In this document: one piece after another, positions 4,896 to 62,425 of the stretch
Position numbering within the stretch: the stretch's first letter is position 1
How the letters are laid out: each line of letters opens with the position of its first letter
Origin: Clostridia bacterium
Lineage (GTDB): Bacteria; Bacillota; Clostridia; TANB77; CAG-508
Direction of reading: 5' to 3'
DNA: 64,000 nucleotides
Assembly: GCA_017511265.1 (NCBI GenBank)
Contig: JAFWKV010000001.1
Span: forward strand, 64,553-128,552
The notes under the pieces: model-generated
The model's database searches: none
Seen by the model: only the letters and a program-made list of their open reading frames with translations
Told to the model about the DNA's origin: nothing
Program-made: the position numbers and the translations under genes

Positions 4896-7802
4896 TTATC
4901 TTGTTAAAAACTTTGACGGCATAAATGCTTGTCTACCATCATTTAGTTGTATTCTAAGCCAATCAAATCCATCTATATTGTTATATGTACCTTGATTAAT
5001 TACAGTAACACTCGTTCCATCTGACAATGCTGTTATTTTGTCCAAACGTGTACTAGGTCCTACTCTAACATTACATCCAATTCCATCAGCTGTTTTTACT
5101 TTTGCTGTGTAATTACAGTTTGTTACATCTGCCACTTGTTTTAAGTAAGTACCAGACATATAGCCTATGGTTCCATCTGTCATTATTACTTTTTGCCAAT
5201 TACTATTTATTCCTCTTTGTACTGATAATACAATTTCTCCCTGTGCAACTGTTCTTAATTTTTCTGAATTTGTATCAGCCTCTTTTCTAAGTCTTAATCC
5301 TCCATTGGCAGTTATTTGTACATTAATAGGTGATGTTTCAGAATTATTTGTTGGTAGTTGTGAACCTTTGTTATCTATATTATCAATATTTTCATACAGT
5401 GGTATAACAAATGTAAATCCTGAATCAATTTTTCCTGTATTTACATACATTCCCCTTAATGTTCTAGCTTCACTGTATGCTGCCATTAGATTTTGCATAT
5501 ATTGATGTTGATATAATGGCGTTCCATTTTGTTTATCAATATCAAATTTATTTTGATATAGAGTATTTTGGTAATTCTCTAACCAATTATCCTTGCAGAA
5601 AGATATTCCTCCTTCTAATGCTTTTTGCATCGTATCCCATCCATATGCCTTTGCTTTTGCTAATGCATTATTATATATTGCAGTTTTTCCATTTCCTGAA
5701 GCACCTATATTAAATGGATTATAATACGTCTTTCCATCTCCTCCATTCATTCCTGTTCCTATTGTTGTTCCTTTAGTTCCTTGCTCCTGAATAACTCTTG
5801 CAATTATGTAGTATGGATTTACATTTTGATTTTTGCATGCATTATCAATTGCTGCTGCATAATTTGCTAAAAATGTATTCGAGACTTTTTGTTGTATTCC
5901 TTCTAATGTGCAAATTCCTTGCAAATATTCATTTAGTTTTTGGAATTGGAATACATTTGTATCATCTAAAAAATTACGTGGATCCATATAGTATGCTATT
6001 GCTTTTTCAGAAGCACAATACCAGCCGCTATCATAAAGCTTTGTTCCACATATTGGACAAACCCATTCTCCTGAATAAGATGAAGGCACCAAGTTTCTTG
6101 AATGAACTGCATATTCTCCCTTTATTGCTTCATCAAATGTAAGTCCTGTATATAATAGTTCGAAGTTCCATTCAGGATGTAAATTAATTAACCCTTCTAT
6201 TTTTTCCTTATATCCCGGATATTTTGAAATATCTATTGTGTTTACAATAGCAGATGGTTTTATAAATTTAAATTTTTGAGCATTTGTTCCATTTCCATCA
6301 TATACTTGTATATTGTTGCCATTGTATGCCATTCCAGCTCCTAAATCTAAATATAACTGGTTGCATTTTGATATTATTGAATACGTGTCATCTGAATTTT
6401 TTTGTATTATCCATTTTTGAGCATCTGTATTGTTGTATTCATACTGCCATACATTGGTTCCAGCTTTTTTTAATCCACAATATACATCTAATACTTTGTT
6501 TGAGCATTGTGCTGTTATTACGTAATAGCCATCAATATATTCTACTTTAAATTTTTGGCTGGTTGTTGAATTTTTTTCATATATCTGAACATTAGCCTCA
6601 TTTTCTTTCGAACCTCCACTAACATCTAATACATAATTGCTTGATACTGCTGTTTCTATTATATATGTTCCATCTTCTATTGTTTTGTGACTTTCAATTT
6701 GTTTTTGTTCTTCTTTTATTGGTTCCACACTAATATTGTTGTTTTCTCTTTTTTCTTCTTTTTCTATTTTTTCTGTATCTTCACTTTGGTCATTGTCTTC
6801 AACATTTTCAAGAATAAACTTCTGAGCTTTTGTTCCATTTCCATTATATACCTGTATATTGCTTCCATTTTGTGCTAAGCCACAATCTACATCTAGACAT
6901 AATCCATTACATTTTGATATTATTGAATATGTGTTATCTGAATTTTTTTGTATTATCCATTTTTGGGCATCCGAGTTATTAAATTCATATTGCCATACAT
7001 TAGTTCCTGCAGTTTTTTGTGCTGCATATACATCTAATACTTTATTTGAACCAATTGATGTTATTTTGTAATATCTATTATCTATCTTTTCTATTTTCCA
7101 TTTTTGGGCATTTGTGTCATTTCTTTCATATAATTGCACATTAGCACCATCGGTTTTTGCCCCCCCATTTACATCTAATACATAATCTTGGTTTAATGCT
7201 GATTTTATTATATACGTCTCTTCAGCTATGTCTGCTGAAATCGTATTTTTTGAATTTAATGACTCTATATAGTATTTTTGTGCTTTTGTTCCGTTTCCAT
7301 CATATACTTGTATGTTTCCTCCATTTTGTGCTATTCCACAATCAAGATCTAAACATAATCCATTACATTTCGATATAATTGAATATGTGTTATCAGCATT
7401 TTTCTGTATAGTCCATTTTTGAGCATCCGAGTTATTAAATTCATATTGCCATACATTAGTTCCTGCAGTTTTTTGTGCTGCATATACATCTAATACTTTA
7501 TTTGAACCAACTGATGTTATTTTGTAATATCTATTATCTATCTTTTCTATTTTCCATTTTTGGGCGTTTGTATCATTTCTTTCATATAATTGCACATTGG
7601 CTTCATTTGCTTTAGATCCACCGTCTACATCTAACACATAGTCTTGATTCACTGATGATTTTATGATATATACTCCTTCTTCTATGTCTTGTGTGCTTAT
7701 ATTTTCTCCTGCAAAAGAAATAATAGCATTAATACTAAGTATTTGAAATAAAACAAATACTATTAATGCTATTATTGACTTTGTTTTTATATTATCTTTC
7801 AT
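4896..7802 (-). CDS. Cell-wall hydrolase: three ricin-type (QxW) beta-trefoil lectin modules, GH73-like N-acetylglucosaminidase, two SH3b domains
   Basis: Likely start is ATG 7802, preceded by AAGGAGGG; signal peptide follows. Repeated ...NAQKW...YSIISKCNGLCLD... trefoil units. NPYYIIARVIQEQG...YNPFNIGA glucosaminidase-like block. C-terminal SH3b-like repeats (GYMSGTYLK, RQAFMPSKFL). Confidence 0.7.
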   Translation of the reverse strand: MKDNIKTKSIIALIVFVLFQILSINAIISFAGENISTQDIEEGVYIIKSSVNQDYVLDVDGGSKANEANVQLYERNDTNAQKWKIEKIDNRYYKITSVGSNKVLDVYAAQKTAGTNVWQYEFNNSDAQKWTIQKNADNTYSIISKCNGLCLDLDCGIAQNGGNIQVYDGNGTKAQKYYIESLNSKNTISADIAEETYIIKSALNQDYVLDVNGGAKTDGANVQLYERNDTNAQKWKIEKIDNRYYKITSIGSNKVLDVYAAQKTAGTNVWQYEFNNSDAQKWIIQKNSDNTYSIISKCNGLCLDVDCGLAQNGSNIQVYNGNGTKAQKFILENVEDNDQSEDTEKIEKEEKRENNNISVEPIKEEQKQIESHKTIEDGTYIIETAVSSNYVLDVSGGSKENEANVQIYEKNSTTSQKFKVEYIDGYYVITAQCSNKVLDVYCGLKKAGTNVWQYEYNNTDAQKWIIQKNSDDTYSIISKCNQLYLDLGAGMAYNGNNIQVYDGNGTNAQKFKFIKPSAIVNTIDISKYPGYKEKIEGLINLHPEWNFELLYTGLTFDEAIKGEYAVHSRNLVPSSYSGEWVCPICGTKLYDSGWYCASEKAIAYYMDPRNFLDDTNVFQFQKLNEYLQGICTLEGIQQKVSNTFLANYAAAIDNACKNQNVNPYYIIARVIQEQGTKGTTIGTGMNGGDGKTYYNPFNIGASGNGKTAIYNNALAKAKAYGWDTMQKALEGGISFCKDNWLENYQNTLYQNKFDIDKQNGTPLYQHQYMQNLMAAYSEARTLRGMYVNTGKIDSGFTFVIPLYENIDNIDNKGSQLPTNNSETSPINVQITANGGLRLRKEADTNSEKLRTVAQGEIVLSVQRGINSNWQKVIMTDGTIGYMSGTYLKQVADVTNCNYTAKVKTADGIGCNVRVGPSTRLDKITALSDGTSVTVINQGTYNNIDGFDWLRIQLNDGRQAFMPSKFLTR
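6812..7723. repeat. Near-identical tandem duplication (period 456 bp) inside the lectin-hydrolase gene
   Basis: The block starting GAATATGTGTTATC at 6925 recurs at 7381, with only scattered substitutions over more than 200 nt. The encoded ~152-aa double-trefoil units differ at a handful of residues. Boundaries approximate. Confidence 0.85.
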
Positions 7803-7891
7803 TTGTATTTCCCTCCTTCTTTTGGTACAATCATATTTTATCATATAATGTAGAAAAAGGGAATACTTTTTTTATGGATATTTTAGGTAAA

Positions 7892-10800
7892 TTAATAATT
7901 TTTATAGCATATATTCATATCAACTACTGTATTTATACCAGGTATCCATCCAGAGCTTGTATATTGCCACATATCATATTTATTTCTATAATCTGTTTGT
8001 TTATCACTACTACCTGTATAATGAGCAACCCAAATATCATATCCTCCTAATTGTGATAAATCTAAATCATTATAAAACCAATATTTACTTGCATAAATTC
8101 CTGGTATATATCCAGCATTGCGTATTGTATCACAAAATGCCCTACATACGGCTGTTCTTGTGTATCTATCTAAGTTATCAGCTCTTCCTGGATTATCTGC
8201 TGCTGCTGTAGACCTTTCTGTATCTATGTATATTGGATATTTTAAATACAATCCATATTGCTTTGCTAAATTTATAACATAGTTTGCCTCTTCAACTGCT
8301 TCTTGTGTATTAACTGCTTGCGTATAAAAATATAAACCAATATCTACTTTATTTTCTTTTATTCCTGCAATATTTTCTTCAAAGTTGCTATCTGTTACTA
8401 TTTTTCCTGTTCTGTATCCTCTATATCCTGTTCTTATTATTGCATAATCTACATTTCCAAATCGTTTTACTATTTGCCAATTAATGTCACCATTGTAACT
8501 ACTAACATCTATACCTCTTCTGTTTAATAGTGTATTAAATTTAAACATTTGTGCTATAGAAGTATTTCCCTTATAAACATGTACATTAGTTCCGTTAGCA
8601 GTTCCATTTCCTACAACATCTAAATAAAATCCTATGGCTTTATTTTTTATTTTGTAATAACCATTTCCTGCAATTTCTATACTCCACTGCTGATTATCTT
8701 CATTTTTATCTGATGCTTGTACAACATTATTATTACCTAATGCAGTTAAAACTTTATTAGAATGTCTTGCGATAATTTTATAATAAATGCCATCTATATT
8801 TTCAAATGAATACACTTGTTGATTTACATTATCTTGAGTCCATATTTGTAAATTTGCATTTTCACTATTTGAACCACCATCAATGTCTAAACATTTATTT
8901 TCATCTTTTTTTATTGATACTTTATAATAATTTTCTTCGATTACAAGAGCTGGCTCAAAAATAAATTTTTGAGCTTTGCTTTCATTGCCTTCATATATTT
9001 GAACATTAGTACCATTCGTAGTTTTTCCTCCACTAATGTCTAAATATAAATTTGAATTCAATGCAACTATGTAATAGCTTCCATTATCTGCTTTTTGAAT
9101 CGCCCATCTTTGAGCTATAGTATTATTGCCCTGATACTGCATTACATTTGTTCCATCTGTTTTTCCATTTCCGCACACATCTATATATTTTCCTGAATTA
9201 ACTGATTGTATTGTATAATACTTTTCGCCATTGTTGTAAGTTACTTTATATTTTTGTTGTTGGACATATGCTCTATCCCATATTTGAAGATTTGCACTAT
9301 TATTAAAACTTCCACCTGATATATCTAAAACTTTATTATTGTTTAGCATTGAACTTATGGTATAATAACCATCTTCTATAGTTTTTTCACTATTTAGTTC
9401 ATTTTCTAGTTTTAGAAATTTAAATTTTTGAGCGTTTGTGTTATTACCTTCATACATTTGTAATTTTGTTCCATTTTCTGCTCTACCTCCTGGAACATCT
9501 AAATATAACGCATTGCATCTTGAAATTAAATAATAATAATCATTTTCTGCTTTTTTTATAATCCACTGTTGCATATTGGAACCATTTTCATCATTTTGTT
9601 GTATTTGTGCTCCATTTGAATGTGATCCATTTACTACCTCTAATGCTTTTTCTGATTTTAATGATTGAATTTTATAATACCCATCACCTATGTATGCAAC
9701 TTTAAAACCTTGGCTTTTATTTATAACTCCTAGTTTTTTAGCAATTTGAATTTTTTTGTTATTTGCTGTTGATTGACCTTCCATTTCTATAACTTTATCA
9801 TTATTGCATTTTGGTACTATATTGTAAATTCCATCATCTATTGTTTGTTCCCCAACATTTACTTCTGCTTTAAGAAATTTGAATTTTTGTGCTTTTGTAC
9901 CATTACCTTCATATGTTTGCACATTTGTTCCATTTTCTGTTCTAGCTCCACTAATATCTAAATATAATTCATTACATTTTGATATTATACTATAATATCC
10001 ATCTTCTGTTTTCTTTAAAACCCATCTTTGAGCATCTGTATTATTACTTTCATATTGTGCAACATTTGTTCCATTATCTTGTCCTGCAGCAGAAACATCT
10101 AATACTTTTCCTGAATGGATTGCTGTAATAATATATGCCTTTTTGCTAGAATCATAAGAAATATTAAATTTTTGATATTCTTTGTCAATTTTATCCCATA
10201 TATTTACATTAGAGTTATTTTCATAGTTGCCATTACCTACTCGTAATACCTTGTTTTTTGATAATGCAGAACAGATATAATAGTCTCCTTCTTGTAAAAT
10301 ATTTTCACATTGTAATTTTTCAACTTTATTAAGCATAAATTTTTGTGCATTAGTACCATTTTGTTCAAATATCTGTATATTTGAACCATCTTGAATATTT
10401 CCGCCATAAGATATCTAAACATTTATTAGTATTTTTTGAAATTATGTTATAATTTTGACTGTCTATCTTCTTTATTTCCCATTGTTGTGCTAAAGTACCA
10501 TTATACTCATATAATTGAACATTCGTATAGTTTTCTTTTCTTCCGGCATTCAATATCTAGCACTTTATTTCCTTGTAGTGCTTTTATAATATATGCCTTT
10601 TTTTCTTTATCATATATAATATAAAATTTTTGTTTTTTTAAATGTTTATTCGTCCCTATATTTATATTTGTTCCATTGCTATATGTAGTATTAGAAATAT
10701 TTATTATTTTACTATTGTCCACACTTGAGCAAATTTCATATATTCCATCTTCTATCGTTTTTTCTTCATTTTTTTGTTCAGCTAGCTTTTTATGTTCATC

Positions 10801-29826: not shown

Positions 29827-30828
29827 TTAGTTTATTTTAAATGCTAAAAAAGCAATGAATGGTAAATGAAATAACACAATTTCTTTGCACATTTTTTTTA
29901 TTAGATTTTTTCCACCTAAAAGTTTAAAATACCTAATAAAGTGTATATTCATAATTCTTGTTTTTGAAATCATTTCATAATAAGCTATTAATTGTTTGCA
30001 AAGCAACTTGTCCTCGTTATTTTCTGCGTAGTCAAAGCACATTTTAGCTGCATCTAGATAGCAATTCTCAATTGCCCATTTTCTATATTTTCTAAAAGTA
30101 TCATAATTATTACCATACTTTTCTTTCCATCTTGCCAAATTTTGATTTAAACTTCTACCTCCAAAAACATTAGAGGTATGAAGTCTATAATCAAATAACT
30201 CATCATAAATATAATCAATACCATTCAATTCATTCGCAATAAATCCAGCTAACCAATCATGAGCTATAACGTCTGTTTTGAATGGAATCATTTTTTCTTT
30301 TACTTCTTTTGTAATTATTTGCGAACAACCTATTCCTGCATATCTTGATATAGCAAGCTTACTTTTTCCCTTTATAAGTGGTATATTCTTATGCTTAAAG
30401 TAATCTGTGCATATTACATTTCCATTTTCGTCAATTTGCCTACAATTAACATATACTAAACTACTATTTGTTTCTTTTATTTTTATTAAACTTTTTTCTA
30501 CCTTGTCATTGTGCCATACATCATCATGGTCACAAAACATTATATAATCTGCGGTTGATTGTTTTAAAAGAAATTCAAAATTACTATTGAATCCAATATT
30601 TTTTTCTTGCATAAAAATAATTACTCTGTCATCTTTTTCTTCATATTCTTTTAAAACTTGTCCCACATTTTTTTCAGTTGATGCATCATCACTAATGTAA
30701 ATTTTTATATTTTTGTGTGTCTGATTAAGTAAGCTATCAATTTGCTCTCGCAAAAAATTCTCATTTGAATTATAAGTTGCAAGCAAAATATCAACTAAAT
30801 CGTCATTCATACACTTTCTTTCCCTCAT
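29827..30828 (-). CDS. GT2 glycosyltransferase (rhamnosyltransferase-like family)
   Basis: VDILLATYNSNENFLREQIDSLLNQT...ISDDAST...CDHDDVW. The true start may be ATG 30810 (MNDDL). Confidence 0.8.
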   Translation of the reverse strand: MRERKCMNDDLVDILLATYNSNENFLREQIDSLLNQTHKNIKIYISDDASTEKNVGQVLKEYEEKDDRVIIFMQEKNIGFNSNFEFLLKQSTADYIMFCDHDDVWHNDKVEKSLIKIKETNSSLVYVNCRQIDENGNVICTDYFKHKNIPLIKGKSKLAISRYAGIGCSQIITKEVKEKMIPFKTDVIAHDWLAGFIANELNGIDYIYDELFDYRLHTSNVFGGRSLNQNLARWKEKYGNNYDTFRKYRKWAIENCYLDAAKMCFDYAENNEDKLLCKQLIAYYEMISKTRIMNIHFIRYFKLLGGKNLIKKMCKEIVLFHLPFIAFLAFKIN

Positions 30829-30840
30829 TTTTTAATTTTC

Positions 30841-31003
30841 TTTAGATGTTGATATATAAATATATAAATACGAAAATCTTTGTGTGTCGCAAGCTACGAA
30901 CTAAAAGTACTAGTCTGTAGCTTGCTCCAATCGCACTCGTTTCACTCGTTTGGTCGCTTACGCAGATTTTCTTTATTTATATATTTATATATCAACATCT
31001 AAA
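30841..31003. repeat. Hairpin element HP-A1 (family A): 30-bp perfect arms plus 101-nt conserved core
   Basis: Arms 30841-30870 and 30972-31003 are exact reverse complements. Inner helix GAAAATCT/AGATTTTC. Core 30871-30971 is the reverse complement of the HP-A2 core (about 90% identical by eye). Confidence 0.95.
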
Positions 31004-31020
31004 ACAATATCTAAAAAATT

Positions 31021-31992
31021 CTATTTAAATAATCTATAAGTAAATTTCGCCACAATTGGTAAATTAAGCATTACAAAAGTTTTTAGTCTCATCATTGGAT
31101 ATTCCATATTGTATAAATCAAAAAATGTTTTGTAATTTTTAAAATTTACTATTTTTTTTCTTTTTATGTCTTCCATATATGCTATTCCTCTTTTTGCTAA
31201 ATTAGGTATATCTTTATTTTCAAACTTGTCTTCATTTTCAACATAAATACTAAATTGGTCTAGCTTTAACTTTATATAGTTTTGCCTGTATTCATCTGCT
31301 GATTTAATTTTTTGTTTCATCCCATATATGCCTACTTGATTATTCTTATGTTGTCTATATTTTATTGTAGTTTCATCTAAAAAACTTAGTTTACCGTTTT
31401 GTCCTATCATTAATGCCATCCACCAGTCATGAACCATTGGTTTCTTCTGTGGTATCGGAATGTATTTGTTAATATGCTCTTTTTTTGTTATAATTGTACA
31501 CCCTGTCACACCACAATTATGTAAAAATACTAATTTGTAATCATTGTGCATATCTATATTTTTTTTATATCCTCTAAATTTGACAACAGATGAAGTTATT
31601 GTTTTTAAATTTTCATCTACTGCTTCTAAGTCAGTAAATACCAAGTCTGCCTTGTCTTCGATAATCTTATTTAATGACTTTTCTACTTTGTCAGGCATCC
31701 AGTAATCATCTTGATCTGCGAGCATAAAGTATTCGTTTTCTACTCTTTTTAATAAATTCTCAAAGTTTTTTATATATCCTAAATTTTTTTCATTAAAATG
31801 TAGGTTTATTCTGTTGTCTTTTTTTGCATATTCTTTTAAAATTTCTGCCGTTCCATCTGTTGATGCATCATCATTTATTACTATTCTAATATTTTTGTAT
31901 GTTTGGTTTAATATACTGTCTAGTTGGCATTTTAAATATTTTTCTCCATTATATGTAGCAAGTAAAATATCTACTCTGTGTAGATTTTCCAT
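31021..31992 (-). CDS. GT2 glycosyltransferase, paralogue of 29827-30828
   Basis: VDILLATYNGEKYLKCQLDSILNQT...INDDASTDGT...ADQDDYW. Preferred start is ATG 31992, preceded by GGGAGTG; the ORF track extends it to 32052. Confidence 0.8.
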   Translation of the reverse strand: MENLHRVDILLATYNGEKYLKCQLDSILNQTYKNIRIVINDDASTDGTAEILKEYAKKDNRINLHFNEKNLGYIKNFENLLKRVENEYFMLADQDDYWMPDKVEKSLNKIIEDKADLVFTDLEAVDENLKTITSSVVKFRGYKKNIDMHNDYKLVFLHNCGVTGCTIITKKEHINKYIPIPQKKPMVHDWWMALMIGQNGKLSFLDETTIKYRQHKNNQVGIYGMKQKIKSADEYRQNYIKLKLDQFSIYVENEDKFENKDIPNLAKRGIAYMEDIKRKKIVNFKNYKTFFDLYNMEYPMMRLKTFVMLNLPIVAKFTYRLFK

Positions 31993-32080
31993 ATGTTTCA
32001 CTCCCATATTATTAGATAGTGTAATTTTACCTTTTTTAGTGAGTTTTGTCAATATGTTGGATTTTTTATAAAGGTTGCTT

Positions 32081-32320
32081 TATGTAGATAGTTGTTACAG
32101 GAAAGGTTAAAGTTAGATAAATGCGTTCAGATGCCAATATGTATAAATAAAGAAAATCTGCGTAAGCGACCAAACGAGCAAAGCGAGTGCGATTGGAGCA
32201 AGCTACATACTAGTATTTTTATTTGGAGCTTGCGACACACAAAGATTTTCGTATTTATACATATTGGCATCTGAACGCATTTATCTAACTTTAACCTTTC
32301 CTGTAACAACTATCTACATA
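32081..32320. repeat. Hairpin element HP-A2 (family A): 69-bp perfect arms plus conserved core
   Basis: Arms 32081-32149 and 32252-32320 are exact reverse complements. Core is 32150-32251. The right arm contains the last codons and stop of uppP (32310-32320). Confidence 0.95.
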
Positions 32321-33110
32321 TGTATAGCCAAATGACAGCCAATCCTAATAATACTCTATAAACTGCAAAAACTTTAAAATCTCCCTTTTTAAGATAATCT
32401 AGCAAAAATTTAATTACAAGTATTCCAGAAATAGCACTTGTAATAACACCTACTAAAAAAGGAATATCAAACCCAAAATCTTTAAACTTGTATAAAGTGG
32501 CACCTAAAACTATAGGAGTTGAAAGCATAAACGAATACTTTGCAGCTCCCTCTCTAGAAACGCCTAGCATTCTACCTGTTGTCATAGTTATACCTGACCT
32601 TGAAACCCCTGGTATAAAAGCTAAAGCTTGTGATAAACCAATAAGAAAGCTTTGCTTAAAAGACATGTTTTCATACTCGTTTTTGGTTGGAGCATATTTA
32701 TCTACTAAATATAGTATTACTCCCATAACAATTAACATTATTGCAATAAGTATAGGCATATTTGCTAGTTTCTCACCAATAAAATGATCTAGCAAAAAGC
32801 CTATTACACCTCCTGGTATTGTTGCAATGGCAATAAGCCAAAACATTTTTCCTTCTTTAGATAAATGTACATTTTTTTTTGATTTACATTTAAAAATCTT
32901 CATGCCTTCCTTTATTAACTCTATCCAATCATTATAAAAAAATAAACAAATTGCTATAAGTGTGCCAAAATGTAAAGCCACATCAAAGCTTTCTGTTACA
33001 TTCCATCCACACATCCATGGTATGAGATTTAGATGTGCAGAACTCGAAATAGGCAAAAGTTCTGTTACTCCTTGCACTATTCCTAAAATTATCGCTTGAA
33101 AAATAGTCAT
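32310..33110 (-). CDS. uppP: Undecaprenyl-diphosphate phosphatase
   Basis: MTIFQAIILGIVQGVTELLPISSSAHL, PGVSRSGITM: BacA/UppP signature motifs. RBS AAAGGAGAAAAA precedes the ATG. Confidence 0.9.
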   Translation of the reverse strand: MTIFQAIILGIVQGVTELLPISSSAHLNLIPWMCGWNVTESFDVALHFGTLIAICLFFYNDWIELIKEGMKIFKCKSKKNVHLSKEGKMFWLIAIATIPGGVIGFLLDHFIGEKLANMPILIAIMLIVMGVILYLVDKYAPTKNEYENMSFKQSFLIGLSQALAFIPGVSRSGITMTTGRMLGVSREGAAKYSFMLSTPIVLGATLYKFKDFGFDIPFLVGVITSAISGILVIKFLLDYLKKGDFKVFAVYRVLLGLAVIWLYICR

Positions 33111-33133: not shown

Positions 33134-33424
33134 GGGCGTGTCAATGGGGACGGGTTTAATTGACACACTGATGATTTTTGGGTTGGTGTGAAAAAGTATC
33201 ACTTGAATAGCACTCTTATTGTTAAAAAATGAAGACCGCGTAGGCGGAGCGAAGCGTAGTCGGCTGGAGCTTTCGTTTCATTAATACATTTCAATGAAAA
33301 AAAGCGACAACAAGGTCGTAATGTTTAACAATAAGAATGATACTCTAGTTGATGCTTTTTCACCCCAACCCAAAAATCATCATCAGTGTGTCATTTAAGC
33401 CCGTCCCCATTGACACACGTCCCC
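33134..33424. repeat. Hairpin element HP-B1 (family B): imperfect ~100-nt arms plus conserved core
   Basis: Arms contain inverted copies of the 31-nt motif TGTGTCAATTAAGCCCGTCCCCATTGACACA (33137-33167 reversed, 33387-33417). Core 33234-33317 is about 90% identical to 52641-52726. The right arm encodes the last 12 codons of dpaA. Confidence 0.9.
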
Positions 33425-37245: not shown

Positions 37246-38577
37246 ATGCAAATTGTAACATTAATCATACTTGTAGCAATCAATGCCTTTTTTGCAGCAT
37301 CAGAAATGGCATTTGTAACACTAAATGATGCAAAAATTGCCTCACTGGCAAAAGAAGGAAACAAAAAAGCAAAAAAAATTCAAAAAATGTTAAATAAACC
37401 TAGTAAATTTTTAGCAACAATTCAAATAGGAATAACTCTTGCAGGATTTTTATCAAGTGCCTTTGCAGCAGACACATTTGTTAGTGTTCTAGCACCTGTT
37501 TTACAAAAAAGTATGCCATTTTTCAGCATAGAAATATGGCAAGGAATTTCACTAGTACTTATCACTATTTTGCTTTCATTTTTCACACTTATCTTTGGCG
37601 AATTAGTGCCAAAAAGAATAGCTATGAAATTTTCAGAAAAGGTTGCATTTTTTGCTGTAGGACCAATTCATTTTGTTTCTGTCATTACTGCACCTTTTGT
37701 AGCATTTTTAACAGCATCAACAAACTTCATTTCTAAATTATTTGGTATTAGCGAAACAGATGAAGAAACAGTTACTGAAGAAGAAATAAGAATGATGGTC
37801 AATCAAGGTGGAGAAAATGGAGCAATAGATGATAGTGAACAAGAAATGATAAATAATGTGTTTGAATTCAATGACAAAGAAGTTTCTGAAATAATGATTT
37901 ATAGAACTGAAATTTTTGCAGTTGATGGAGACACTACAGTAGCAGAATTTGAAAAAATTATTGAAAAAGAAAATTATAGATATAGTAGAATCCCTGTATA
38001 TGATAAAACTATTGATAATATGCAAGGCGTTGTATATTTAAAAGATATTCTAAAGGCAAAAGATAATAAAAATGATAGCAGTACAAGAATCAAAAAAATT
38101 ACTAGAAAAATTTTATTCTTCCCAGAATCTAAATTTATTAATGATGCATTTAAAGAAATGCAAGTAAATAAAATTCAAATGGCTGTTGTTCTAGATGAAT
38201 ATGGTGGAACTACTGGTATTGTAACAATGGAAGATATTCTTGAAGAACTCGTTGGCGATATTTATGATGAATATGATAAGGTTGAATTTAAATATGAAAA
38301 ATTAGATGATAATACTTTTAGACTTGATGGTTCTATGCCAATATTTGATGTAAATAAAATAATGGAAATAGAACTTCCTGAAGGTGATTATGATACTTTA
38401 TCTGGATTTATTATAAATGAATTAGATAGAATTCCTGAAGACAATGAGCGTCCAACTGTTGAAACACCACAAGCTGTATTTAAAGTTACAAAAATTCAAA
38501 ATAGAAAAATTGAACGCGTTAAGGCTTGTAGAACTAAAACTTTAGAAGGAAAAAATGAATCTGTCGATGAAGGCTAA
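37246..38577 (+). CDS. CNNM/TlyC-family membrane protein (DUF21, CBS pair, CorC_HlyC domains)
   Basis: N-terminal 4-TM DUF21 (GELVPKRIA), a CBS pair, and a C-terminal TGIVTMEDILEELVGDIYDEYD transporter-associated domain. The last 9 codons lie in the HP-D arm. Confidence 0.85.
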   Translation: MQIVTLIILVAINAFFAASEMAFVTLNDAKIASLAKEGNKKAKKIQKMLNKPSKFLATIQIGITLAGFLSSAFAADTFVSVLAPVLQKSMPFFSIEIWQGISLVLITILLSFFTLIFGELVPKRIAMKFSEKVAFFAVGPIHFVSVITAPFVAFLTASTNFISKLFGISETDEETVTEEEIRMMVNQGGENGAIDDSEQEMINNVFEFNDKEVSEIMIYRTEIFAVDGDTTVAEFEKIIEKENYRYSRIPVYDKTIDNMQGVVYLKDILKAKDNKNDSSTRIKKITRKILFFPESKFINDAFKEMQVNKIQMAVVLDEYGGTTGIVTMEDILEELVGDIYDEYDKVEFKYEKLDDNTFRLDGSMPIFDVNKIMEIELPEGDYDTLSGFIINELDRIPEDNERPTVETPQAVFKVTKIQNRKIERVKACRTKTLEGKNESVDEG

Positions 38578-38822
38578 GCTTTTTGATGGTTTGGCTAGAG
38601 CAGATGATTAGTTAAATTATTGAAATTTCGAATGTGCAGTGGAGCAATTGTACAAAATATTAAAGAGAAGTCAAAAAGGGTCCTGTCTTCGGGTATAGTT
38701 TTGACTTCTCTTTTAGATTTTGTAAATTGTGTAGCAAGCCGAGAAATGTAAATAATTTAACTAATCATCTGCTCTAGCCAAACCATCAAAAAGCTTAGCC
38801 TTCATCGACAGATTCATTTTTT
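38550..38822. repeat. Hairpin element HP-D: 71-bp perfect outer arms, imperfect inner stem, GC-rich apical loop
   Basis: 38550-38620 is the exact reverse complement of 38752-38822. The inner stem includes AAAGAGAAGTCAAAA/TTTTGACTTCTCTTT around the loop AGGGTCCTGTCTTCGGGTAT (about 38677-38696). The arms cover the stops of both convergent genes. Confidence 0.95.
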
Positions 38823-40043
38823 TCTTCTAATTATCCAATCTTTCTCACACTTTATAGGTAAATGCATAAATACCTTTTGTCCTTGTCTTCCGGGATTTAC
38901 AGTATCAATTTCTTCTTGTGTTTCAATATCCCATAGTCTATCAATTACAAATTTATATGGCTCTATCTTACTTGGAATAATAATTTCAAGCATATCTCCC
39001 ACTTGTAATCTATTACGTATTTCTATTACAGATTTATCATCATTATACTCTACTACTTTTCCTCCAAATTGATATTCTGCATTATACTGTTTTCCTGCAT
39101 ATTCTTGTATGTCTTTGTTCTCTCTATCATTGAAATAAAATGTAGTTAATCCTCTTGTTTTAACCTTTTCTATTTCTTTTAAATATTTAGTATAATCATA
39201 ATTTTCATGGTCTTTTTCATAATCGTCTATTGCATTTCTATATACATTTATTATGCTTGCTAAATAATATTCTGTTTTTAATCTTCCTTCAATTTTTAAG
39301 CTATCTACACCCATCTCAATTATTTCAGGAAGTTCTTTTATTAGGCATAAATCTTTTGAAGAAAAAATGCTTGTACCATATTCATTTGTTTCAATTGGCA
39401 TTAACTCCCCTGGATTGTTTGCTTCTTCTGCATATAAATTATATGACCATCTACAGCTTTGTGCACAATCTCCTAAATTTGCACTTCTGCCTGTCATAAA
39501 ATCACTTAAAAAGCATCTGCCAGAAAAAGCAAAGCAAATTGCGCCATGAATGAATATTTCAATTTCCATATCTTTGCTTTTGTTTTCTACAATGTACTTT
39601 AGCTGTTCTTTATTCATTTCTCTTGCCATTATCATTCTTTTCGCACCTTGCTTATGCCAGAAGTTGCAAGTATGTAGACTAACAAGATTTGCCTGTGTAC
39701 TCATGTGTATGTCAATACTTGGAGCATACTGTTTTACAATTTCTACTACTCCACCATCTGCTACAATAACTGCATCTGCTTTTAATTCTTCTAGCATTTT
39801 AACTTGCTCAATTATTTCTTCATATTTGTCGTCCCAAGCATAAATGTTTAATGTAACATATACTTTTTTACCTATACTATGTGCATATTTTATTGTGTTT
39901 GCTAAATCTTCGTTTTCCATATCTGCTCTGGTTCTTAATGATAATGAAGATGTACCACAATAGACTGCATCTGCTCCATACAAAAAGGCTATTTTTGCTT
40001 TTTCGAATGAACCGGCTGGTGCTAACAATTCAATTTTTTTCAT
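38814..40043 (-). CDS. Peptidase U32 family protein (YrrO/TrhP-like)
   Basis: ELLAPAGSFEKAKIAFLYGADAVYCG, EIFIHGAICFAFSGRCFLS: U32 hallmarks. Start at ATG 40043, preceded by AAGGAGG. Sits next to a YrrM-like methyltransferase, as in B. subtilis yrrMNO. Confidence 0.85.
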   Translation of the reverse strand: MKKIELLAPAGSFEKAKIAFLYGADAVYCGTSSLSLRTRADMENEDLANTIKYAHSIGKKVYVTLNIYAWDDKYEEIIEQVKMLEELKADAVIVADGGVVEIVKQYAPSIDIHMSTQANLVSLHTCNFWHKQGAKRMIMAREMNKEQLKYIVENKSKDMEIEIFIHGAICFAFSGRCFLSDFMTGRSANLGDCAQSCRWSYNLYAEEANNPGELMPIETNEYGTSIFSSKDLCLIKELPEIIEMGVDSLKIEGRLKTEYYLASIINVYRNAIDDYEKDHENYDYTKYLKEIEKVKTRGLTTFYFNDRENKDIQEYAGKQYNAEYQFGGKVVEYNDDKSVIEIRNRLQVGDMLEIIIPSKIEPYKFVIDRLWDIETQEEIDTVNPGRQGQKVFMHLPIKCEKDWIIRRKK

Positions 40044-40059
40044 CTTTTTCCTCCTTTGA

Positions 40060-40128
40060 GTTGTCAATTAGGTCGGGATGTGTCAATTAAGCCCGTCCCC
40101 ATTGACACACCCCGACCTAATTGACAAC
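40060..40128. repeat. REP-like hairpin HP-R1 (28-bp stem, 13-nt loop) containing the 31-nt motif
   Basis: GTTGTCAATTAGGTCGGGATGTGTCAAT / ATTGACACACCCCGACCTAATTGACAAC with one A.C mismatch. Motif copy at 40079-40109. Fills the gap between the methyltransferase stop (40130) and the U32 RBS (40050-40056). Confidence 0.9.
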
Positions 40129-40129
40129 T

Positions 40130-47258: not shown

Positions 47259-47279
47259 TTTCAGTTCTCCTTTTTTAGT

Positions 47280-47421
47280 GATGTTTTTTGGGACGTGTTG
47301 TGTCAATGGGGACGGGCTTAATTGACACGCTTGATGCCTTAGTAGAAATTTTTAAGTCACCAAAGCATTAGTGTGTCAATTAAGCCCGTCCCCATTGACA
47401 CAACCCATTCCCAAAATCATC
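47280..47421. repeat. REPIN-like doublet HP-R2: two inverted copies of the 31-nt motif forming a ~65-bp imperfect hairpin
   Basis: Motif copies at 47299-47328 (reversed) and 47372-47402. The flanks GATG..TTTTGGGA.. and ..TCCCAAAATCATC also pair. The element occupies the whole sufS-sufU spacer and includes the first bases of the sufS stop codon. Confidence 0.9.
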
Positions 47422-48643
47422 ACTTCTTTATAAATTTTTCAAACATACTATAGGCTTTTTTTAAAGCCTCAACTAGCCTATCCACGTCCTCTTTATTATT
47501 ATAGATATAAAAGCTTGCTCTACATGTTGCAGGAAGTTTTAAAAATCTAATTAATGGTTGTGCACAATGGTCTCCCGCACGCACTGCTATGCCTTGACTA
47601 TCTAGAATTGTTGCTAAATCATGTGGATGTACTCCTTTTATATTAAAAGAAATTACTCCACAATGATTATCTTCATTTGGTGTATAGTAAGTTTCTACAA
47701 AATCAAGTTTTGCAAGTTCTTGTTTAGCATAGCCTACTACTTCTTCCTCTATTTTTGCAATTGTATCATACCCAATACTTTCAATATAATCAATTGCAGC
47801 TCCTAAACCTACAACGCCTTCTACATTTTGAGTTCCTGCTTCAAATTTATTTGGAAGTGGTGCAAAAGTAGTTTTATCTTCATACACATATTCTATCATA
47901 TCTCCACCCATTAGAAATGGATTCATATCATTTAATAATCTCTTTTTACCATACAACACGCCAATTCCAAGAGGGCCAAGCATTTTATGTCCTGAAAATA
48001 CTAAAAAGTCTGCATCTAAGTCTTGGACATCCACCTTCATGTGAGGAATACTTTGTGATGCGTCAACAACAACTATAGCACCTTTTTTATGAGCATATTT
48101 AATTATCTCTTTTACATTATTTATAGTTCCTAACACATTAGAAACATGTGTAATGCCAACAATTTTAGTATTGTCTGTTATTTTTGCTTTTATCTCTTCT
48201 TCAGATAATTCGTATTCATCATTTATATACATGTATTCTAGTTTGCTACCTGTTTTTTTTGTTACAAATTGCCAGGGTACTAAATTTGAATGATGCTCCA
48301 TTATAGAAATTATCACAGAATCATCTTCACCTAAATTTTCTAATCCATACGAATATGCAATTAAATTTAAAGCTTCACTTGCATTTTTAGTAAAAATAAT
48401 TTGTTCCGATTTTTCAGCATTTATAAACTTAGCAATCTTTTTTCTTGTATTTTCATATACATCAGTTGCTTCTATACTTAATTCATACGCTCCTCTATGA
48501 GGATTAGCATTTTTTGTTTTATAAAAATTATCAATTGCATCTATAACGCACTGAGGTCTTTGTGAAGTAGCCCCACTATCTAAGTAAGCTATGTCGATTT
48601 TTTCAAAGATTGGAAAATCTTTTTTTATTTTATCTACATTCAT
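47420..48643 (-). CDS. sufS: Cysteine desulfurase SufS
   Basis: AYLDSGATSQRP, SGHKMLGPLGIGVLYG (PLP lysine), RAGDHCAQP. Confidence 0.9.
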   Translation of the reverse strand: MNVDKIKKDFPIFEKIDIAYLDSGATSQRPQCVIDAIDNFYKTKNANPHRGAYELSIEATDVYENTRKKIAKFINAEKSEQIIFTKNASEALNLIAYSYGLENLGEDDSVIISIMEHHSNLVPWQFVTKKTGSKLEYMYINDEYELSEEEIKAKITDNTKIVGITHVSNVLGTINNVKEIIKYAHKKGAIVVVDASQSIPHMKVDVQDLDADFLVFSGHKMLGPLGIGVLYGKKRLLNDMNPFLMGGDMIEYVYEDKTTFAPLPNKFEAGTQNVEGVVGLGAAIDYIESIGYDTIAKIEEEVVGYAKQELAKLDFVETYYTPNEDNHCGVISFNIKGVHPHDLATILDSQGIAVRAGDHCAQPLIRFLKLPATCRASFYIYNNKEDVDRLVEALKKAYSMFEKFIKK

Positions 48644-52538: not shown

Positions 52539-52827
52539 TGCTGTCTTTTGGGACGGGGCAAAAAAACATCACCTGCTGTCTTTTGGGACGGGGTTAAAAA
52601 ACATCATCATCTCCATTAGCTATATTTATTAAAAAATGTAGACCGCGTAGGCGGAGCGAAGCGTAGTCGTCTGGAGCTTTCTCTTCACTAATATAAATTT
52701 CAATGAAAGAAAGCGACAACAAGGTCGTAATGTTTAATAAATATAACCAATGGAGATGATGATGTTTTTTAACCCCGTCCCAAAAGACAGCAGGTGATGT
52801 TTTTTTGCCCCGTCCCAAAAGACAGCA
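52539..52827. repeat. Hairpin element HP-B2 (family B): ~92-bp near-perfect arms plus conserved core
   Basis: Arms pair from 52539/52827 inward with only two mismatches (52618.52748, 52620.52746). Each arm carries two copies of CTGTCTTTTGGGACGGGG (52541-52558, 52576-52593; reversed at 52773-52790, 52808-52825). Core is 52641-52726. Confidence 0.95.
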
Positions 52828-54555: not shown

Positions 54556-56002
54556 ATGTCATTAGATAGTAACACATTTAGAGAACGAAATAAACAACAT
54601 CCTATTAGAAAAAACGCATTAGAAAATTTTAGTAAAGTTACAAATTTTTCTGTAAGCAAAGATGTAAGAAGATATATGTATCAAGTTATGGCAACAATTG
54701 GCTTAGAGCTTGAGCGAAAATTCCCAAATACAGTACATTTTGATGATAACCGGTTTTAAAATGTTCGGTCGTATAAAATCTGAAAAGAGTACATCTGAAA
54801 AAAAAGCATCGAATATACAAGATTATGATGATAAATTTCAAACTGCTATAGAAGAGCAAAAAGACATACCTACAGAAGTAAGACCTATTTTTGATTTTTA
54901 TGCTTACAAATTAGTATGTCCTGAAATTACAAACTCTCATGATGTAATAAATACTGTAATTTCAGATATTTTAACTGATATTGGAAAACATTCACCCAAA
55001 TATCTATCATACATAACTGAATTAAAAAGTAGTATTGATATATCGCGTTTTCCTTCATTAGAATTTATTACTAACAATTTTTCAGATAAATATCCTAATT
55101 TAAAAGATAAGTTAGCAGCTGTAATGTATACTCAAAATGAGGCAAATAAAACTCAAGAATTTTTGGATAATGCTCCTAAAGATGTATCAAATCTTACTTA
55201 TTCAGAATATTATTCAAAAATAATTGAATGTTATCAACTTTTAATTAATCTTTCGTATGATGATTCTATTGAAGAATATACTCGTATTGCAAAATTAGCT
55301 AAGCAGTCTAGAGAGCAATTACATCAAATAATTGAACAAGGTAAAAGTCATCAAAAAATTGATAAACAGTTCCATAAAGAATACGGAGATACTTTAGAAA
55401 AACTATTAAAACATGTTTCAAAAAAGCGAACAAACAGGCTTGACCTAACAATTTGTGATTTGATGGTCTTCGATGTTTTAACTACTTGTGAATCATTAAA
55501 AAAGTTAGGAGTGTCTTATTCAAAGGATCCTACTAGAACTAAGAAAAAGAGGAAGCAAAATGGCTACATAGCAAATTTTTATAGTTTAGATATGCCAAAT
55601 GGATTAACATCTGAAATTCAATTACAATCACTTTATAGATATGAATATGGTGAGTATGGACCTGCAGCACATCATAAAATGGAAAATGGATTAAAGAAAA
55701 GAACTTTATTTAAAAGACCTAAAAACAAAAGTAAATATGCAGATTGGGCTGAGAAGCAATTTAAAGCATTACCTAGATATTTTACCTATAGAGGTAATGG
55801 TTATGTTGAAGTACATAGCACTCTTCAAAATTTTAGAAAATATTATGACTGCAAAGATAAAAGTGAGGTTCAAACATATGTTGAATTTATTGCACAGCAT
55901 GATGTTGATTTATTAGATAGCCATCTTATACAATTTTCTTTGGATGATACTTCTCCTTTAAATAAATCAACAAAAGCAAATAATTCCGCAGAAGAACGCT
56001 AA
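54556..56002 (+). CDS. Atypical RelA/SpoT-homologue (RSH) nucleotidyltransferase-like protein; needs a +1 frame change at 54754-54759
   Basis: ATG 54556 follows GGAGGTGA. FGRIKSEKSTSEKK, FDFYAYKLVC, NGYIANFYSL...SEIQLQS...AAHHKM follow the order of RelA_SpoT synthetase motifs but are degenerate, and about 190 aa are inserted between them. The N-terminal 67 codons end at TAA 54757-54759. Skipping one T restores ...DDNRFKMFGRIKS. Confidence 0.55.
54754..54759 (+). other. TTT_TAA site joining the two RSH reading frames
   Basis: CGG TTT TAA AAT G in frame 0. Re-pairing Phe-tRNA on the overlapping TTT (+1) gives AAA ATG TTC GGT CGT = KMFGR. Confidence 0.6.
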
Positions 56003-56207
56003 GAACAATTTTTATAAATAAATAATAACTCATATACTATATAAATATAGAATCGCATGAATGTTGAATTATAAATATATTTGGAACAAAACATAGCTGG
56101 GGTCTTCCTATTGGTCTTGTTCCGACAATATATTTATAATTCAACATTTATGCGATTCTATATTTATATAGTATATGAGTTATTATTTATTTATAAAAAT
56201 TGTTCTT
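56001..56207. repeat. Hairpin element HP-C2 (family C): ~81-bp arms with a single G.T mismatch
   Basis: 56001-56081 pairs with 56127-56207 (mismatch 56059.56149). Apex GGAACAA/TTGTTCC encloses AAAACATAGCTGGGGTCTTCCTA (56088-56110). The right arm contains the last 7 sense codons and stop of the SEDS gene. The left arm starts at the last base of the RSH stop codon. Confidence 0.95.
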
Positions 56208-62212: not shown

Positions 62213-62235
62213 ATTCCCACTTCCTTAGCAAAAAT

Positions 62236-62425
62236 TATACCCCACTGGGCCGTAAGACTAGTTGAATTTTTAAGGACCTGCTCCTAAAAACAGGTGGGTG
62301 CCTACCTAAATATTCCTGGGCTTCTTACTGTACTGTAAGCTTGCACGCCATATTTGAGAGTTCGGCCCCTCTTAATGTGTGTTGGTTCTAAAAATTCCGT
62401 CTTTACAAACTTTGTAGGGTATATA
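62236..62425 (+). ncRNA. Candidate ~190-nt structured RNA, 6S-RNA-like long irregular hairpin (strand tentative)
   Basis: GC-enriched intergenic block. Paired ends TATACCC/GGGTATA, GTAAGAC/GTCTTTAC, AATTTTTA/TAAAAATT and GGACC/GGTTC enclose a central region with small hairpins (AGGTGG-GTGC-CTACCT; GAGAG-N8-CTCTT; CTTAC-N6-GTAAG). G.T pairs favour the plus strand. No sequence-level match to 6S can be asserted from memory. Confidence 0.35.

Follow-up and report, generated by a model that had tools for sequence, protein, structure and literature searches.

In C. difficile, flgB and cwpV are controlled by switches that work at a step later than transcription initiation, and the recombinase RecV is encoded far away from them. 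Invertons are frequent near surface genes (PMC11892184). The REPIN enzyme, RAYT, is the product of one distant gene and works in trans (PMC3116915, PMC3337134), and in a survey of HuH enzymes Clostridia are not among the groups named for REP-associated classes (PMC6006769). The hairpins of Correia elements (CREE) of Neisseria are co-transcribed with their neighbours and are cleaved or protected by RNase III, or block it (PMC2649163), and in clostridial operons intergenic stem-loops set mRNA processing and stability (PMC4423207). At the DNA level, template switching between the arms of inverted repeats is described (PMC8604942, PMC13100816) as homogenising the arms, inverting the spacer and expanding the repeats.

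The window, a stretch of 64,000 nucleotides from a Clostridia bacterium, contains a Wzm/Wzt-type glycan cluster of about 32 kb in which two long hairpins, A1 and A2, flank a GT2 glycosyltransferase gene. The preliminary description had reported this arrangement and its surface-glycan setting, and both were confirmed, the gene and its setting by Pfam searches. The features of the locus are as follows.

29827 to 30810, minus strand: second GT2 gene (GT2 domain), downstream of A1
30828 to 31016, minus strand: element A1, hairpin arms and core, with its perfect part at 30841-31003
31021 to 31992, minus strand: GT2 glycosyltransferase gene between A2 and A1 (Pfam PF00535, E 1.6e-29)
32024 to 32052, minus strand: promoter-like site of sigma-70 type, TTGACA-17-TAAAAT, between A2 and the start codon of the GT gene
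32081 to 32320, plus strand: element A2, hairpin arms and core
32310 to 33110, minus strand: uppP/bacA, upstream of A2 (Pfam PF02673, E 1e-80), with its last codons within the A2 arm

The A1 arms (30841-30870 and 30974-31003) are perfectly complementary over 30 nt, and when extended outward to 30828-31016 they reach 43 nt with 86% complementarity, leaving only 18 nt, which carry the ribosome-binding site, before the start codon of the second GT2 gene. The A2 arms (32081-32149 and 32252-32320) are 69 nt long and 100% complementary, and the right arm covers the final 11 nt of uppP, including its stop codon. The arm lengths given earlier, 30 and 69 bp, were thus exact. Folded as RNA, the 189 nt of A1 yielded -69.7 kcal/mol, and the fold energy of A2 was -135 kcal/mol. 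The A1 core (30871-30973) has its G-rich strand, GCGTAAGCG...GACACACAA, on the minus strand, and the A2 core (32150-32251) has it on the plus strand. With one core reverse-complemented, 93 of 101 positions are identical (92%), in line with the identity of about 90% on opposite strands first estimated by eye, and the terminal motifs GAAAATCT...AGATTTTC are common to both. The two elements scored 127.6 bits (A1) and 125.6 bits (A2) against a covariance model, R1.

The inner arms are homologous as well, TTTAGATGTTGATATATAAATATATAAATA in A1 corresponding to TTCAGATGCCAATATG and TATAAATA in A2 with a six-position gap between them. As first described, they differ by about five substitutions and a 6-nt indel, every one of which is mirrored in the partner arm, since within either element this part pairs perfectly with itself. 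Between A1 and A2 the outer arms have no relation in sequence. Where arm and core meet there is a 2-nt asymmetry (..ATAC|GAAAATCT.. versus ..GATTTTC|TTTAT..), which moves with the core in both copies, so that entire units, and not the cores alone, are oppositely oriented. MEGAHIT contigs built with k=141 (L010, L011 and L016) anchor each arm separately in unique flanking sequence and show it at 100% identity; the hairpins are not an assembly artefact.

How the arms change was seen by comparing A2 with its orthologue in a related locus, L028, where UppP shares 85% amino acid identity with that of the window. The A2 arms have diverged to 69% identity, and all 20 of their 20 differences are mirrored, so that the claim that pairing rather than arm sequence has been kept now stands on firmer ground than when it was made. 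As judged from these alignments, the arms are shown to evolve at a neutral rate yet strictly in concert. Mismatches in the arms of the wider family have no strand bias towards G.T pairs (22 versus 21, manual tally), which points to copying at the DNA level; selection on the arms at the RNA level was rejected on the same ground, the wobble-type mismatches being without strand bias. A single substitution at 32134 in the A2 arm of one contig (L019) is not mirrored, and is uninformative because another contig from the same sample, L009, contradicts it. The family offers a clean natural case of inverted-repeat arms that change at a neutral rate and stay perfectly complementary.

The core behaves differently from the arms. 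Between the window and L028 its identity is 89-92%, against 62-75% at 4-fold sites, and by this comparison the core is shown to be under purifying selection. The whole module of about 120 nt consists of short imperfect terminal inverted repeats (TATAAATAMRGAAAATCT here) around a GC-richer core of about 85 nt, and occupies the loop of a longer intergenic stem, AT-rich and specific to its locus, that abuts the stop codon of the upstream gene. The core reads GCGTAAGCG-AYCAAACGA-[RY-RAA-RY mini-hairpin]-GAGTGCGATTGGA-GCAA[variable hairpin]TTGC-GACACACAA and contains two covarying hairpins. In the core alignment 94.1% of cells are paired, compared with 82.5 +/- 1.2% in shuffles (none of 500 reached the observed value) and 26-35% in slid controls; 54 cells are changed on both sides, compared with 19.9 +/- 3.8 in shuffles. 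A purely selfish element would not obviously be expected to keep its core selected at orthologous sites, and the core therefore probably has some role of its own.

These properties raise the question whether the core is a structured RNA that serves as a small RNA or regulates in cis, with the long arms as an RNase III processing stem that releases the core in the manner of the stems flanking rRNA. The two covarying hairpins, the purifying selection and the position of the elements inside co-directional operons would all fit, as would a third helix in which all changes (9/9) are G-U-compatible on the G-rich strand only. However, core orientation relative to transcription is mixed, with about 4 G-sense and about 8 C-sense independent loci (manual tally), and differs even between orthologues; the arms are perfectly Watson-Crick paired, with no strand-biased wobble; and Rfam 15 gave no match to the elements, whether at the gathering threshold or with E relaxed to 10 for the window region and to 1 for 12 related loci. 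We regard this explanation as distinctly unlikely.

Signals of other kinds were also sought in the elements. A promoter scan returned 9 promoter-like sites against 11.9 expected, none of them convincing in the cores, and no terminator-like site (GC-rich stem plus T tract) was present in 30600-32500. A candidate promoter noted by eye in gut-type copies, TTGCGA-17-AATAAT, is not conserved in the window type or the B type. The 60-aa ORF across A2 (32092-32274) was rejected as coding because a stop codon interrupts its frame in A1 (GAG TGA). By-eye resemblances to CIRCE, cre, the Spo0A box, sigma-54 promoters, CRISPR repeats and a plasmid sso were only partial and were likewise rejected.

A1 and A2 are two resident copies of an intergenic repeat, modular and built as a nested hairpin, of which AT-rich Clostridia of gut and rumen have many. 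Model R1 recognised four members in the window, namely A1, A2 and two distant relatives, B1 and B2. Across 109 kb of related loci it gave 23 hits, 3 of them within a single 11-kb contig. Two further long hairpins of the window, C and D, are included here with the B elements.

33138 to 33416, plus strand: element B1, distant A-family relative (R1 26.1 bits, E 5.8e-4), core at 33223-33328
38542 to 38830, plus strand: element C, long hairpin between convergent genes, 88-nt arms at 97% complementarity
52539 to 52827, plus strand: element B2 (R1 28.0 bits, E 1.9e-4), core at 52630-52737
55988 to 56220, plus strand: element D, long hairpin with 94-nt arms at 93% and a different, 45-nt core at 56083-56126

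The B1 arms are made of modules containing GGGGACG, and the element covers 26 nt of the 3' end of dpaA; it is missing from the orthologous spacer in L028. The B2 arms are 95 nt long with 98% complementarity. The core of C is itself a nested palindrome with a loose resemblance to the A/B layout, and C was not detected by R1. Searching with an exact 20-mer and a degenerate pattern of the core brought up 5 loci in 3 metagenome-assembled genomes of Clostridia and 12 metagenome loci, with near-perfect arms of 28-114 nt, and more than 20 further copies were found beside housekeeping genes in rumen and gut Clostridia metagenomes. All copies found are intergenic, amid housekeeping genes. The inner 18-37 nt of the arms are common within lineages or subfamilies and the outer arms are not conserved, while some copies (L002 and L005) have arms of about 95 nt in common. 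A contig that resembled an empty B2 site, L049, proved to be a chimera with GC-rich foreign DNA. No match, and no parent insertion sequence, was found in viral contigs, INPHARED phages or PLSDB, so that a phage or plasmid origin is not indicated by these collections; searches for two proteins that flank other elements returned no record. Literature searches found no description of the repeat, and the family, common in uncultured gut and rumen Clostridia, appears to be uncatalogued.

With the family in view, the two elements around the GT gene can be reconsidered. The preliminary description had proposed that the inverted A1 and A2 sites let the 1.1-kb GT segment invert or be excised, switching glycan structure. 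The proposal drew on the approximately 120 nt common to the two elements (92% identity), which are inverted around the gene, and on the surface-glycan cluster in which they lie. Contigs that run from A2 through the GT gene to A1 were available from five samples (L006, L007, L015/L020, L016 and L019), and all are colinear with the window at 99.3-100% identity, none being inverted or deleted; the comparison with metagenome data suggested at the outset therefore returned only the arrangement of the window. In L028 the two cores are in direct orientation, so the inverted bracket is not fixed, and in L030 A2 is absent. The promoter-like site of the GT gene, which matches 11 of 12 consensus positions, lies downstream of A2, where flipping leaves it untouched, and is kept in L028 and in the 95-nt spacer of L030. 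Nor are the elements specific to glycan genes, as relatives lie beside dpaA, a DtxR-type repressor gene, secY, smc, dnaE, serS, the RNase J gene, der and others. The Pfam scan of the window found no recombinase or transposase domain in ORFs of at least 120 aa, which bears out the reported lack of a recombinase nearby, and found none among 20 genes flanking other copies; no RAYT gene lies within the 64 kb. The GT gene, for which independent contigs give the same 323-aa product, is an ordinary member of its operon and no cassette. The cassette reading is already largely refuted and must be considered extremely unlikely, and the switching of glycan structure that was to follow from it falls with it, which removes a tempting false lead. 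The idea of DNA inversion at the locus survives in a different form, for what inverts is the core of each element between its own arms, and not the GT segment between the elements.

The A1 core of the window matches that of L028 at 64 of 101 positions as aligned and at 90 of 101 when reverse-complemented, between flanks that are colinear (55/60 and 56/60). The A1 core is inverted between the species, though replacement of the module could have produced the difference in place of an inversion on the spot. At A2, both junction types occur among the k=141 contigs of a single sample (flipped in L010, as in the window in L016), and in L012 the entire A2 core is flipped; chimeric reads or low-k scaffolding may be responsible. 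A1, B1 and B2 have a single orientation in every contig of the window species that crosses them, and for B1, B2 and C contigs show one orientation or break inside the element, as they do in C.

Could the flips be artefacts, the hairpins being static and the flipped junctions arising from assembler ambiguity or from chimeric reads formed at hairpins? With 69-nt arms on either side, the orientation of a loop is beyond scaffolds apparently built with k of at most 55 (L008 and L015 have exactly 55 nt in common). In L049, plainly a chimera, the join is at the boundary of a hairpin, and flipping within a population is known from assemblies, while template switching during PCR gives exactly such a flipped junction. 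However, the A1 flip between species has colinear flanks and involves arms of at most 30 nt, which no assembler k would fail to exceed; the paths of L010 and L016 were built with k=141, requiring reads across flank, arm and core; and the mirrored evolution of the arms requires arm-to-arm copying in vivo in any case. We consider an artefact very unlikely. The hairpins do break or mis-orient short-read assemblies, many contigs stopping exactly there, and can produce false "inverton" calls. They also change the C-termini of neighbouring genes.

True invertons would account for both orientations in another way, an invertase encoded elsewhere flipping the core at conserved inner repeats and the orientation setting downstream read-through or expression, for instance through Rho loading on the C-rich strand, as a form of genome-wide phase variation. 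The inverted repeats around a conserved segment, the conservation of the inner ~18-37 nt of the arms within subfamilies, the occurrence of both orientations and a core with one C-rich, G-poor strand are consistent with this. Against it, the neighbours are mostly essential housekeeping genes, which would be odd for phase variation, promoter and terminator signals stay within chance, conservation does not extend to the outer arms, a flip of A2 leaves the sequence beside the GT promoter unchanged, and the crossing contigs of the window species hold A1, B1 and B2 in one orientation only. We consider it unlikely.

The orthologous position of A1, between the two GT genes, showed that the loop content also changes. 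A stem is kept there across five related genomes, but in L053 homologous arms surround a D-type core, and in L056 the stem has a 10-nt loop only and no core. The different core in the one and the lack of any in the other indicate that stem loops acquire and lose cores as modules; as far as these alignments reach, gain, loss or exchange of core modules in the loop of a conserved stem is shown. We infer the mobility of the modules solely from presence and absence and from arms common to different loci. No direct repeat that could be a target-site duplication flanks A1, A2 or the L028 copies, and the insertion point is not definable because the empty sites (L030 and L056) are too diverged or palindromic. 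Orthologous sites of the family display loop inversion and module exchange together with concerted arms.

The explanation that we favour, as a probable one, is a nested-hairpin repeat of the MITE/REPIN/Correia-like kind in which template switching between inverted repeats homogenises the arms and flips the loop. Copying of DNA from arm to arm, likely by intramolecular template switching or gene conversion, would keep the arms complementary; the same copying would flip the loop and would extend the arms outward as far as sequence under constraint, for example the end of a gene, a ribosome-binding site or a promoter. As for the module, it may spread non-autonomously by targeting the loops of AT-rich hairpins or recombining into them, its conserved core being recognised by an enzyme whose gene would lie elsewhere in the genome. 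For the host, the chief effect would be independent of orientation and come from a very stable stem of 30-69 bp in the uppP-GT-GT transcript, putatively a 3'-end protector, a processing site or a barrier to read-through between cistrons.

A bolder reading, which we put forward tentatively as a possibility, is that the cores (types A, B, D and E) are a class of undescribed structure-targeted modules that colonise intergenic hairpin loops in AT-rich Clostridia, are recognised by a trans-acting enzyme and are flipped in place, so that each genome would have two-state sites by the hundred, serving a function selected in the host. Such an enzyme would see the folded core as single-stranded DNA, in an extruded or replicating hairpin, or as RNA, and the function would be, for example, stochastic control of operon read-through or strand-specific priming or processing. 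Should the conserved core have a partner acting in trans, Firmicutes would have a new system analogous to REP/RAYT.

Compared with described repeats, CREE are, like the present family, small, non-coding, intergenic and multicopy, with inverted repeats around a conserved core. They differ in having conserved terminal repeats and TA target duplications, whereas here the core is the most conserved part and no duplication is visible, the much longer outer arms differ from locus to locus, and the core flips; similarity in sequence to CREE was not detected. REPINs and BIMEs are also extragenic at the 3' ends of genes, have two inverted arms and a spacer that form a long hairpin, and persist as vertically inherited, long-lived sequence populations within a genome. 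In REPINs, however, the arms (REPs) are conserved and the spacer is variable, and the reverse holds here, with a conserved loop, variable arms and no conserved palindromic unit of 20-40 nt serving as arms. A conserved central motif is also present in the RIB/RIP units of E. coli. The GC clusters of yeast mitochondria are GC-richer, self-folding mobile modules scattered in AT-rich intergenic DNA, a trait that they share with the present repeat by analogy only, the host and sequences being different; we know of no documented preference of theirs for hairpin loops. The general description of MITEs as small, non-coding, AT-rich, intergenic and multicopy applies to the family (four in 64 kb, three in an 11-kb contig), but a target-site duplication was not seen at the copies inspected.

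Invertons, such as C. difficile cwpV/flgB and the Mpi-controlled promoters of Bacteroides, share with the repeat a short segment flanked by inverted repeats (30 and 69 nt here, 28-114 nt in the family) and present in both orientations; their recombinase need not adjoin them, and they are often in surface-glycan loci (PMC11892184). The present segments differ in that no promoter or terminator is evident in them, the arms are far longer and have no conserved recombinase site, the neighbours are mostly housekeeping genes and the number of copies per genome appears much higher. Stem-loops for processing and stabilisation in Clostridia are, like these hairpins, stable and placed directly after cistrons within operons (PMC4423207, PMC10311766), but they are simple hairpins that are not dispersed and have no repeated conserved loop module. 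Template switching, known also as quasi-palindrome correction, predicts homogenised arms, inverted spacers and outward arm growth, as here (PMC8604942, PMC13100816, PMC5941160); it is described mainly for short repeats and single events, whereas here it would act continuously on arms of 30-110 nt around a selected loop of about 100 nt.

Two long-armed hairpins with a conserved core in the loop, A1 and A2, lie on either side of a GT2 gene. The gene order on the minus strand is dpaA, uppP/bacA, A2, GT2, A1, GT2, then more GT2 genes, Wzm/Wzt, Glf and others, for which the term surface-glycan operon used in the preliminary description is a fair one.

Elements A1 and A2 and adjoining features (window coordinates)
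32310–33110, minus strand: uppP/bacA, upstream of A2
32081–32149 and 32252–32320: arms of A2, perfect over 69 nt
32052..32024: promoter-like site TTGACA-17-TAAAAT between A2 and the GT gene, conserved in relatives
31021–31992, minus strand: GT2 gene between A2 and A1
30841–30870 and 30974–31003: arms of A1, perfect over 30 nt (43 nt at 86% when extended)
29827–30810, minus strand: GT2 gene after A1 in gene order

The cores lie on opposite strands as previously described, with 93 of 101 positions identical after reverse-complementing one of them, and share the ends GAAAATCT...AGATTTTC. The inner arms of A1 and A2 are also homologous, with about five substitutions and a 6-nt indel between them; since each element is perfectly self-complementary, every difference is mirrored in the partner arm, again as described. 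The G + C content is 42–45% in the cores and 10–29% in the arms (window, 27.5%), and the computed RNA folds are -70 kcal/mol for A1 (189 nt) and -135 kcal/mol for A2 (240 nt). Three MEGAHIT contigs assembled at k = 141 (L010, L011 and L016) tie each A2 arm, independently of the other, to unique flanking sequence and recover it with 100% identity. Therefore, the perfect complementarity of the A2 arms did not result from collapse of the two.

The glycan cluster also encodes two very large proteins with 6–8 ricin-type lectin repeats (4896–10336, minus strand), one with a GH25 lysozyme domain and the other with SH3 domains, which may be cell-wall-binding autolysins. A 6S/SsrS RNA gene was found at 62235–62423 on the minus strand (Rfam RF00013, 74.7 bits).

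The preliminary description took A1 and A2 to bracket the GT gene as an invertible or excisable cassette. Contigs from five samples crossing A2-GT-A1 were all colinear; at the orthologous loci of related species, the cores are in direct orientation in L028 and the bracket is incomplete in L030. On this evidence, a phase-variable GT cassette is extremely improbable. The preliminary statement that no recombinase gene lies nearby was borne out, with no recombinase or transposase domain found in any ORF of at least 120 aa in the 64 kb; a true inverton would have its invertase encoded at a distance, which we consider unlikely.

Further long hairpins with GC-richer centres were found in the window at 33138–33416 (B1, a distant relative of the A family), 52539–52827 (B2), 38542–38830 (C), 55988–56220 (D), 47277–47424 and 40059–40129. 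Scans with the core detected five loci in three Clostridia MAGs and a further 12 in metagenomes, whose sources include rumen, marmot gut and shrew gut; every complete copy has its core enclosed by near-perfect inverted repeats of 28–114 nt. A covariance model built from 17 distinct copies gives A1 and A2 scores of about 126 bits, detects B1 (E 6e-4) and B2 (E 2e-4), and yields 23 matches across 109 kb of related loci, with three on a single 11-kb contig. The genes flanking copies are housekeeping genes (secY, smc, dnaE, serS, RNase J, der, spoIIIAH, mutS2 and a cation-efflux gene), and no mobile-element genes were found among those flanking the other copies. No matching Rfam family was found, and there were no matches in viral contigs, phage genomes or plasmids. 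Rather than forming a local pair, A1 and A2 belong to a dispersed family. On the 11-kb contig (L038), a T-box leader upstream of serS (6953–7158, minus strand; Rfam RF00230, 103.8 bits) directly adjoins one of the three A-type elements.

On its G-rich strand the core has the consensus GCGTAAGCG-AYCAAACGA-RY-RAA-RY-GAGTGCGATTGGA-GCAA[variable hairpin]TTGC-GACACACAA, with both-side changes in a 2-bp mini-hairpin and in the variable hairpin. Pairing was observed in 94.1% of cells versus 82.5 ± 1.2% in shuffles (0 of 500 reached the observed value) and 26–35% in a slid-partner control. A third helix, CCAAACG/CGATTGG, shows solely G-U-compatible changes and is tentative. Core identity to the window is 89–92% in L028 and 85–87% in L030, above that of 4-fold degenerate sites (62–75% and 48–61%, respectively); the core is thus structured and under constraint. 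Paralogous cores are as alike as orthologous ones. In the A1 copy of L028 (3691–3791) the mini-hairpin loop GC-AAA-GC is changed to GC-TTTA-GC, and in L030 (2029–2112) GCTACCTCCGC stands in place of GCGATTGGAGC, breaking the putative third helix; both variants resemble the products of small template-switch events.

Between the window and L028 the A1 flanks are colinear (55/60 and 56/60), and the A1 core matches at 64/101 as aligned versus 90/101 when reverse-complemented; the L030 core is oriented as in the window. With arms of no more than 30 nt at this site, below any assembler k, the orientation change is real, though it could be module replacement instead of inversion in situ. At A2, contig L010 (k = 141) runs from uppP through an arm into a flipped core, and L016 from the same sample runs from the GT gene through an arm into the same core end, the two ending on one shared 141-mer; L012 carries the entire core flipped, and L011 ends exactly at the inner end of an arm. 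A mixed population would give this pattern, which is suggestive of population-level flipping, although PCR chimeras also generate the same junction. The XIEF21-1 scaffolds were apparently built with k of at most 55, as L008 and L015 share a 55-nt overlap, and a loop lying between 69-nt arms cannot be oriented at such a k. Artefacts as the sole source of the flips are very unlikely.

In the L028 species (UppP 85% identical) the A2 position is occupied by an element whose arms are equally long. Forty-five aligned arm columns are identical in all four arms and 20 differ between species yet agree between both arms of each element, upholding the earlier claim that pairing rather than sequence was kept; the remaining 12 comprise two mismatches within L028, junction asymmetry and outer-end columns. 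Arm identity is 69%, a drift as rapid as that of silent sites, yet never out of register: the arms evolve in concert and at the neutral rate. Transition-type mismatches tallied across the family are balanced, with G.T on the G-rich strand in 22 cases versus 21 on the C-rich strand, and we therefore read the arms as copied into each other at the DNA level rather than as one RNA strand under selection. Template switching between the arms of inverted repeats has been documented as homogenising the arms, inverting the spacer and expanding the repeats (PMC8604942, PMC13100816). Such expansion would explain why arms reach into the stop codons of upstream genes, overlapping uppP by 11 nt and dpaA by 26 nt, and similarly in L028, L031 and L042. 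A C>A change at 32134 in the left A2 arm, seen in one contig (L019, position 18), is not mirrored and is contradicted by L009 from the same sample; it is either a transient strain mutation not yet homogenised or an error. Arms can be lost on one side: of orthologous copies in two MAGs, L002 (2463–2805) has arms of about 100 nt, and L004 (3951–4135) retains just 28 nt of one arm, beyond which the sequence is unrelated and includes a terminator-like hairpin.

In the orthologous GT-GT spacer of L053 (UppP 76%), the stem is built of homologues of the A1 arms (CTTAGATGATTATATATAAATATATTT), and its loop is a D-type core of 42 nt that shares about 90% identity with window 56083–56126. In L056 (UppP 72%) the same stem closes on a loop of just about 10 nt; evidently, the A1 stem predates the loop it now carries. 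The uppP-GT spacer holds another core in L053 (ends AAGAAAATG...CATTTTCTT, arms with GGGGACG), no element in L030, and in L056, as read by eye, a simple hairpin of terminator-like form with a T-rich tract after it. B1 is missing from L028, with one small GGGGACG hairpin at its site, and L002 and L005, different loci of one MAG, have arms of about 95 nt in common. These differing or absent cores at orthologous stems, and arms shared between loci, show that modules move or are exchanged.

The D-type core (GGAACAAAACATAGCTGG.GTCTTCCTA..GGTCTTGTTC), which occupies the orthologous A1 stem in L053 (6150–6260), lies in the window (55988–56220) between an unannotated 430-aa ORF and ftsW, with arms overlapping both convergent gene ends. 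Element C (38542–38830), whose core is a nested palindrome, lies between convergent CNNM/CorC and peptidase U32 genes; its 88-nt arms overlap both 3′ ends, so that both proteins end in arm-encoded residues. Small hairpin modules with loop GGGGACG or GGGACGGGG, e.g. GTGTCAAT-GGGGACGGGTTTA-ATTGACAC, make up the outer arms of B1 and B2 and also occur as stand-alone palindromes at 40059–40129 and 47277–47424.

GGGGACG-type modules in the window: 33146–33152, 33402–33424, 40094–40100, 47308–47314, 47387–47393, also 52539–52633

GGGGACG occurs six times in the window against 0.21 expected, and also in arms of L001, L002, L005, L041 and L053 and in the single hairpin of the L028 dpaA-uppP spacer. These modules look like a separate REP-like family. 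All four independent contigs at element C break inside it, and many others stop at arm boundaries. The MEGAHIT contig L049 was rejected as a chimeric assembly at a hairpin: its first 223 nt are GC-rich foreign DNA, fused to window sequence at a point some 10 nt beyond the outer end of the B2 arm. Thus the elements fragment and confuse short-read assemblies.

We propose that template switching or gene conversion between inverted repeats would copy arm to arm, maintaining and extending the stem and flipping the loop. The module may spread into AT-rich hairpin loops, helped by a factor encoded elsewhere that would recognise the folded core. In the transcript, the 30–69-bp duplex might sit between cistrons as a barrier, a site of processing or a stabiliser, whichever way the core is oriented; that the element yields a processed small RNA is quite unlikely. 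For this putative RNA-level effect, the closest analogues are Correia elements, which are either cut by RNase III or shielded against it (PMC2649163), and the intergenic stem-loops of Clostridia (PMC4423207). Compared with MITEs and REPINs the architecture is reversed, the loop of A-type elements being conserved and the arms variable. What is new within nested palindromic intergenic repeats is the combination of conserved loop and variable arms with loop flipping and module exchange.
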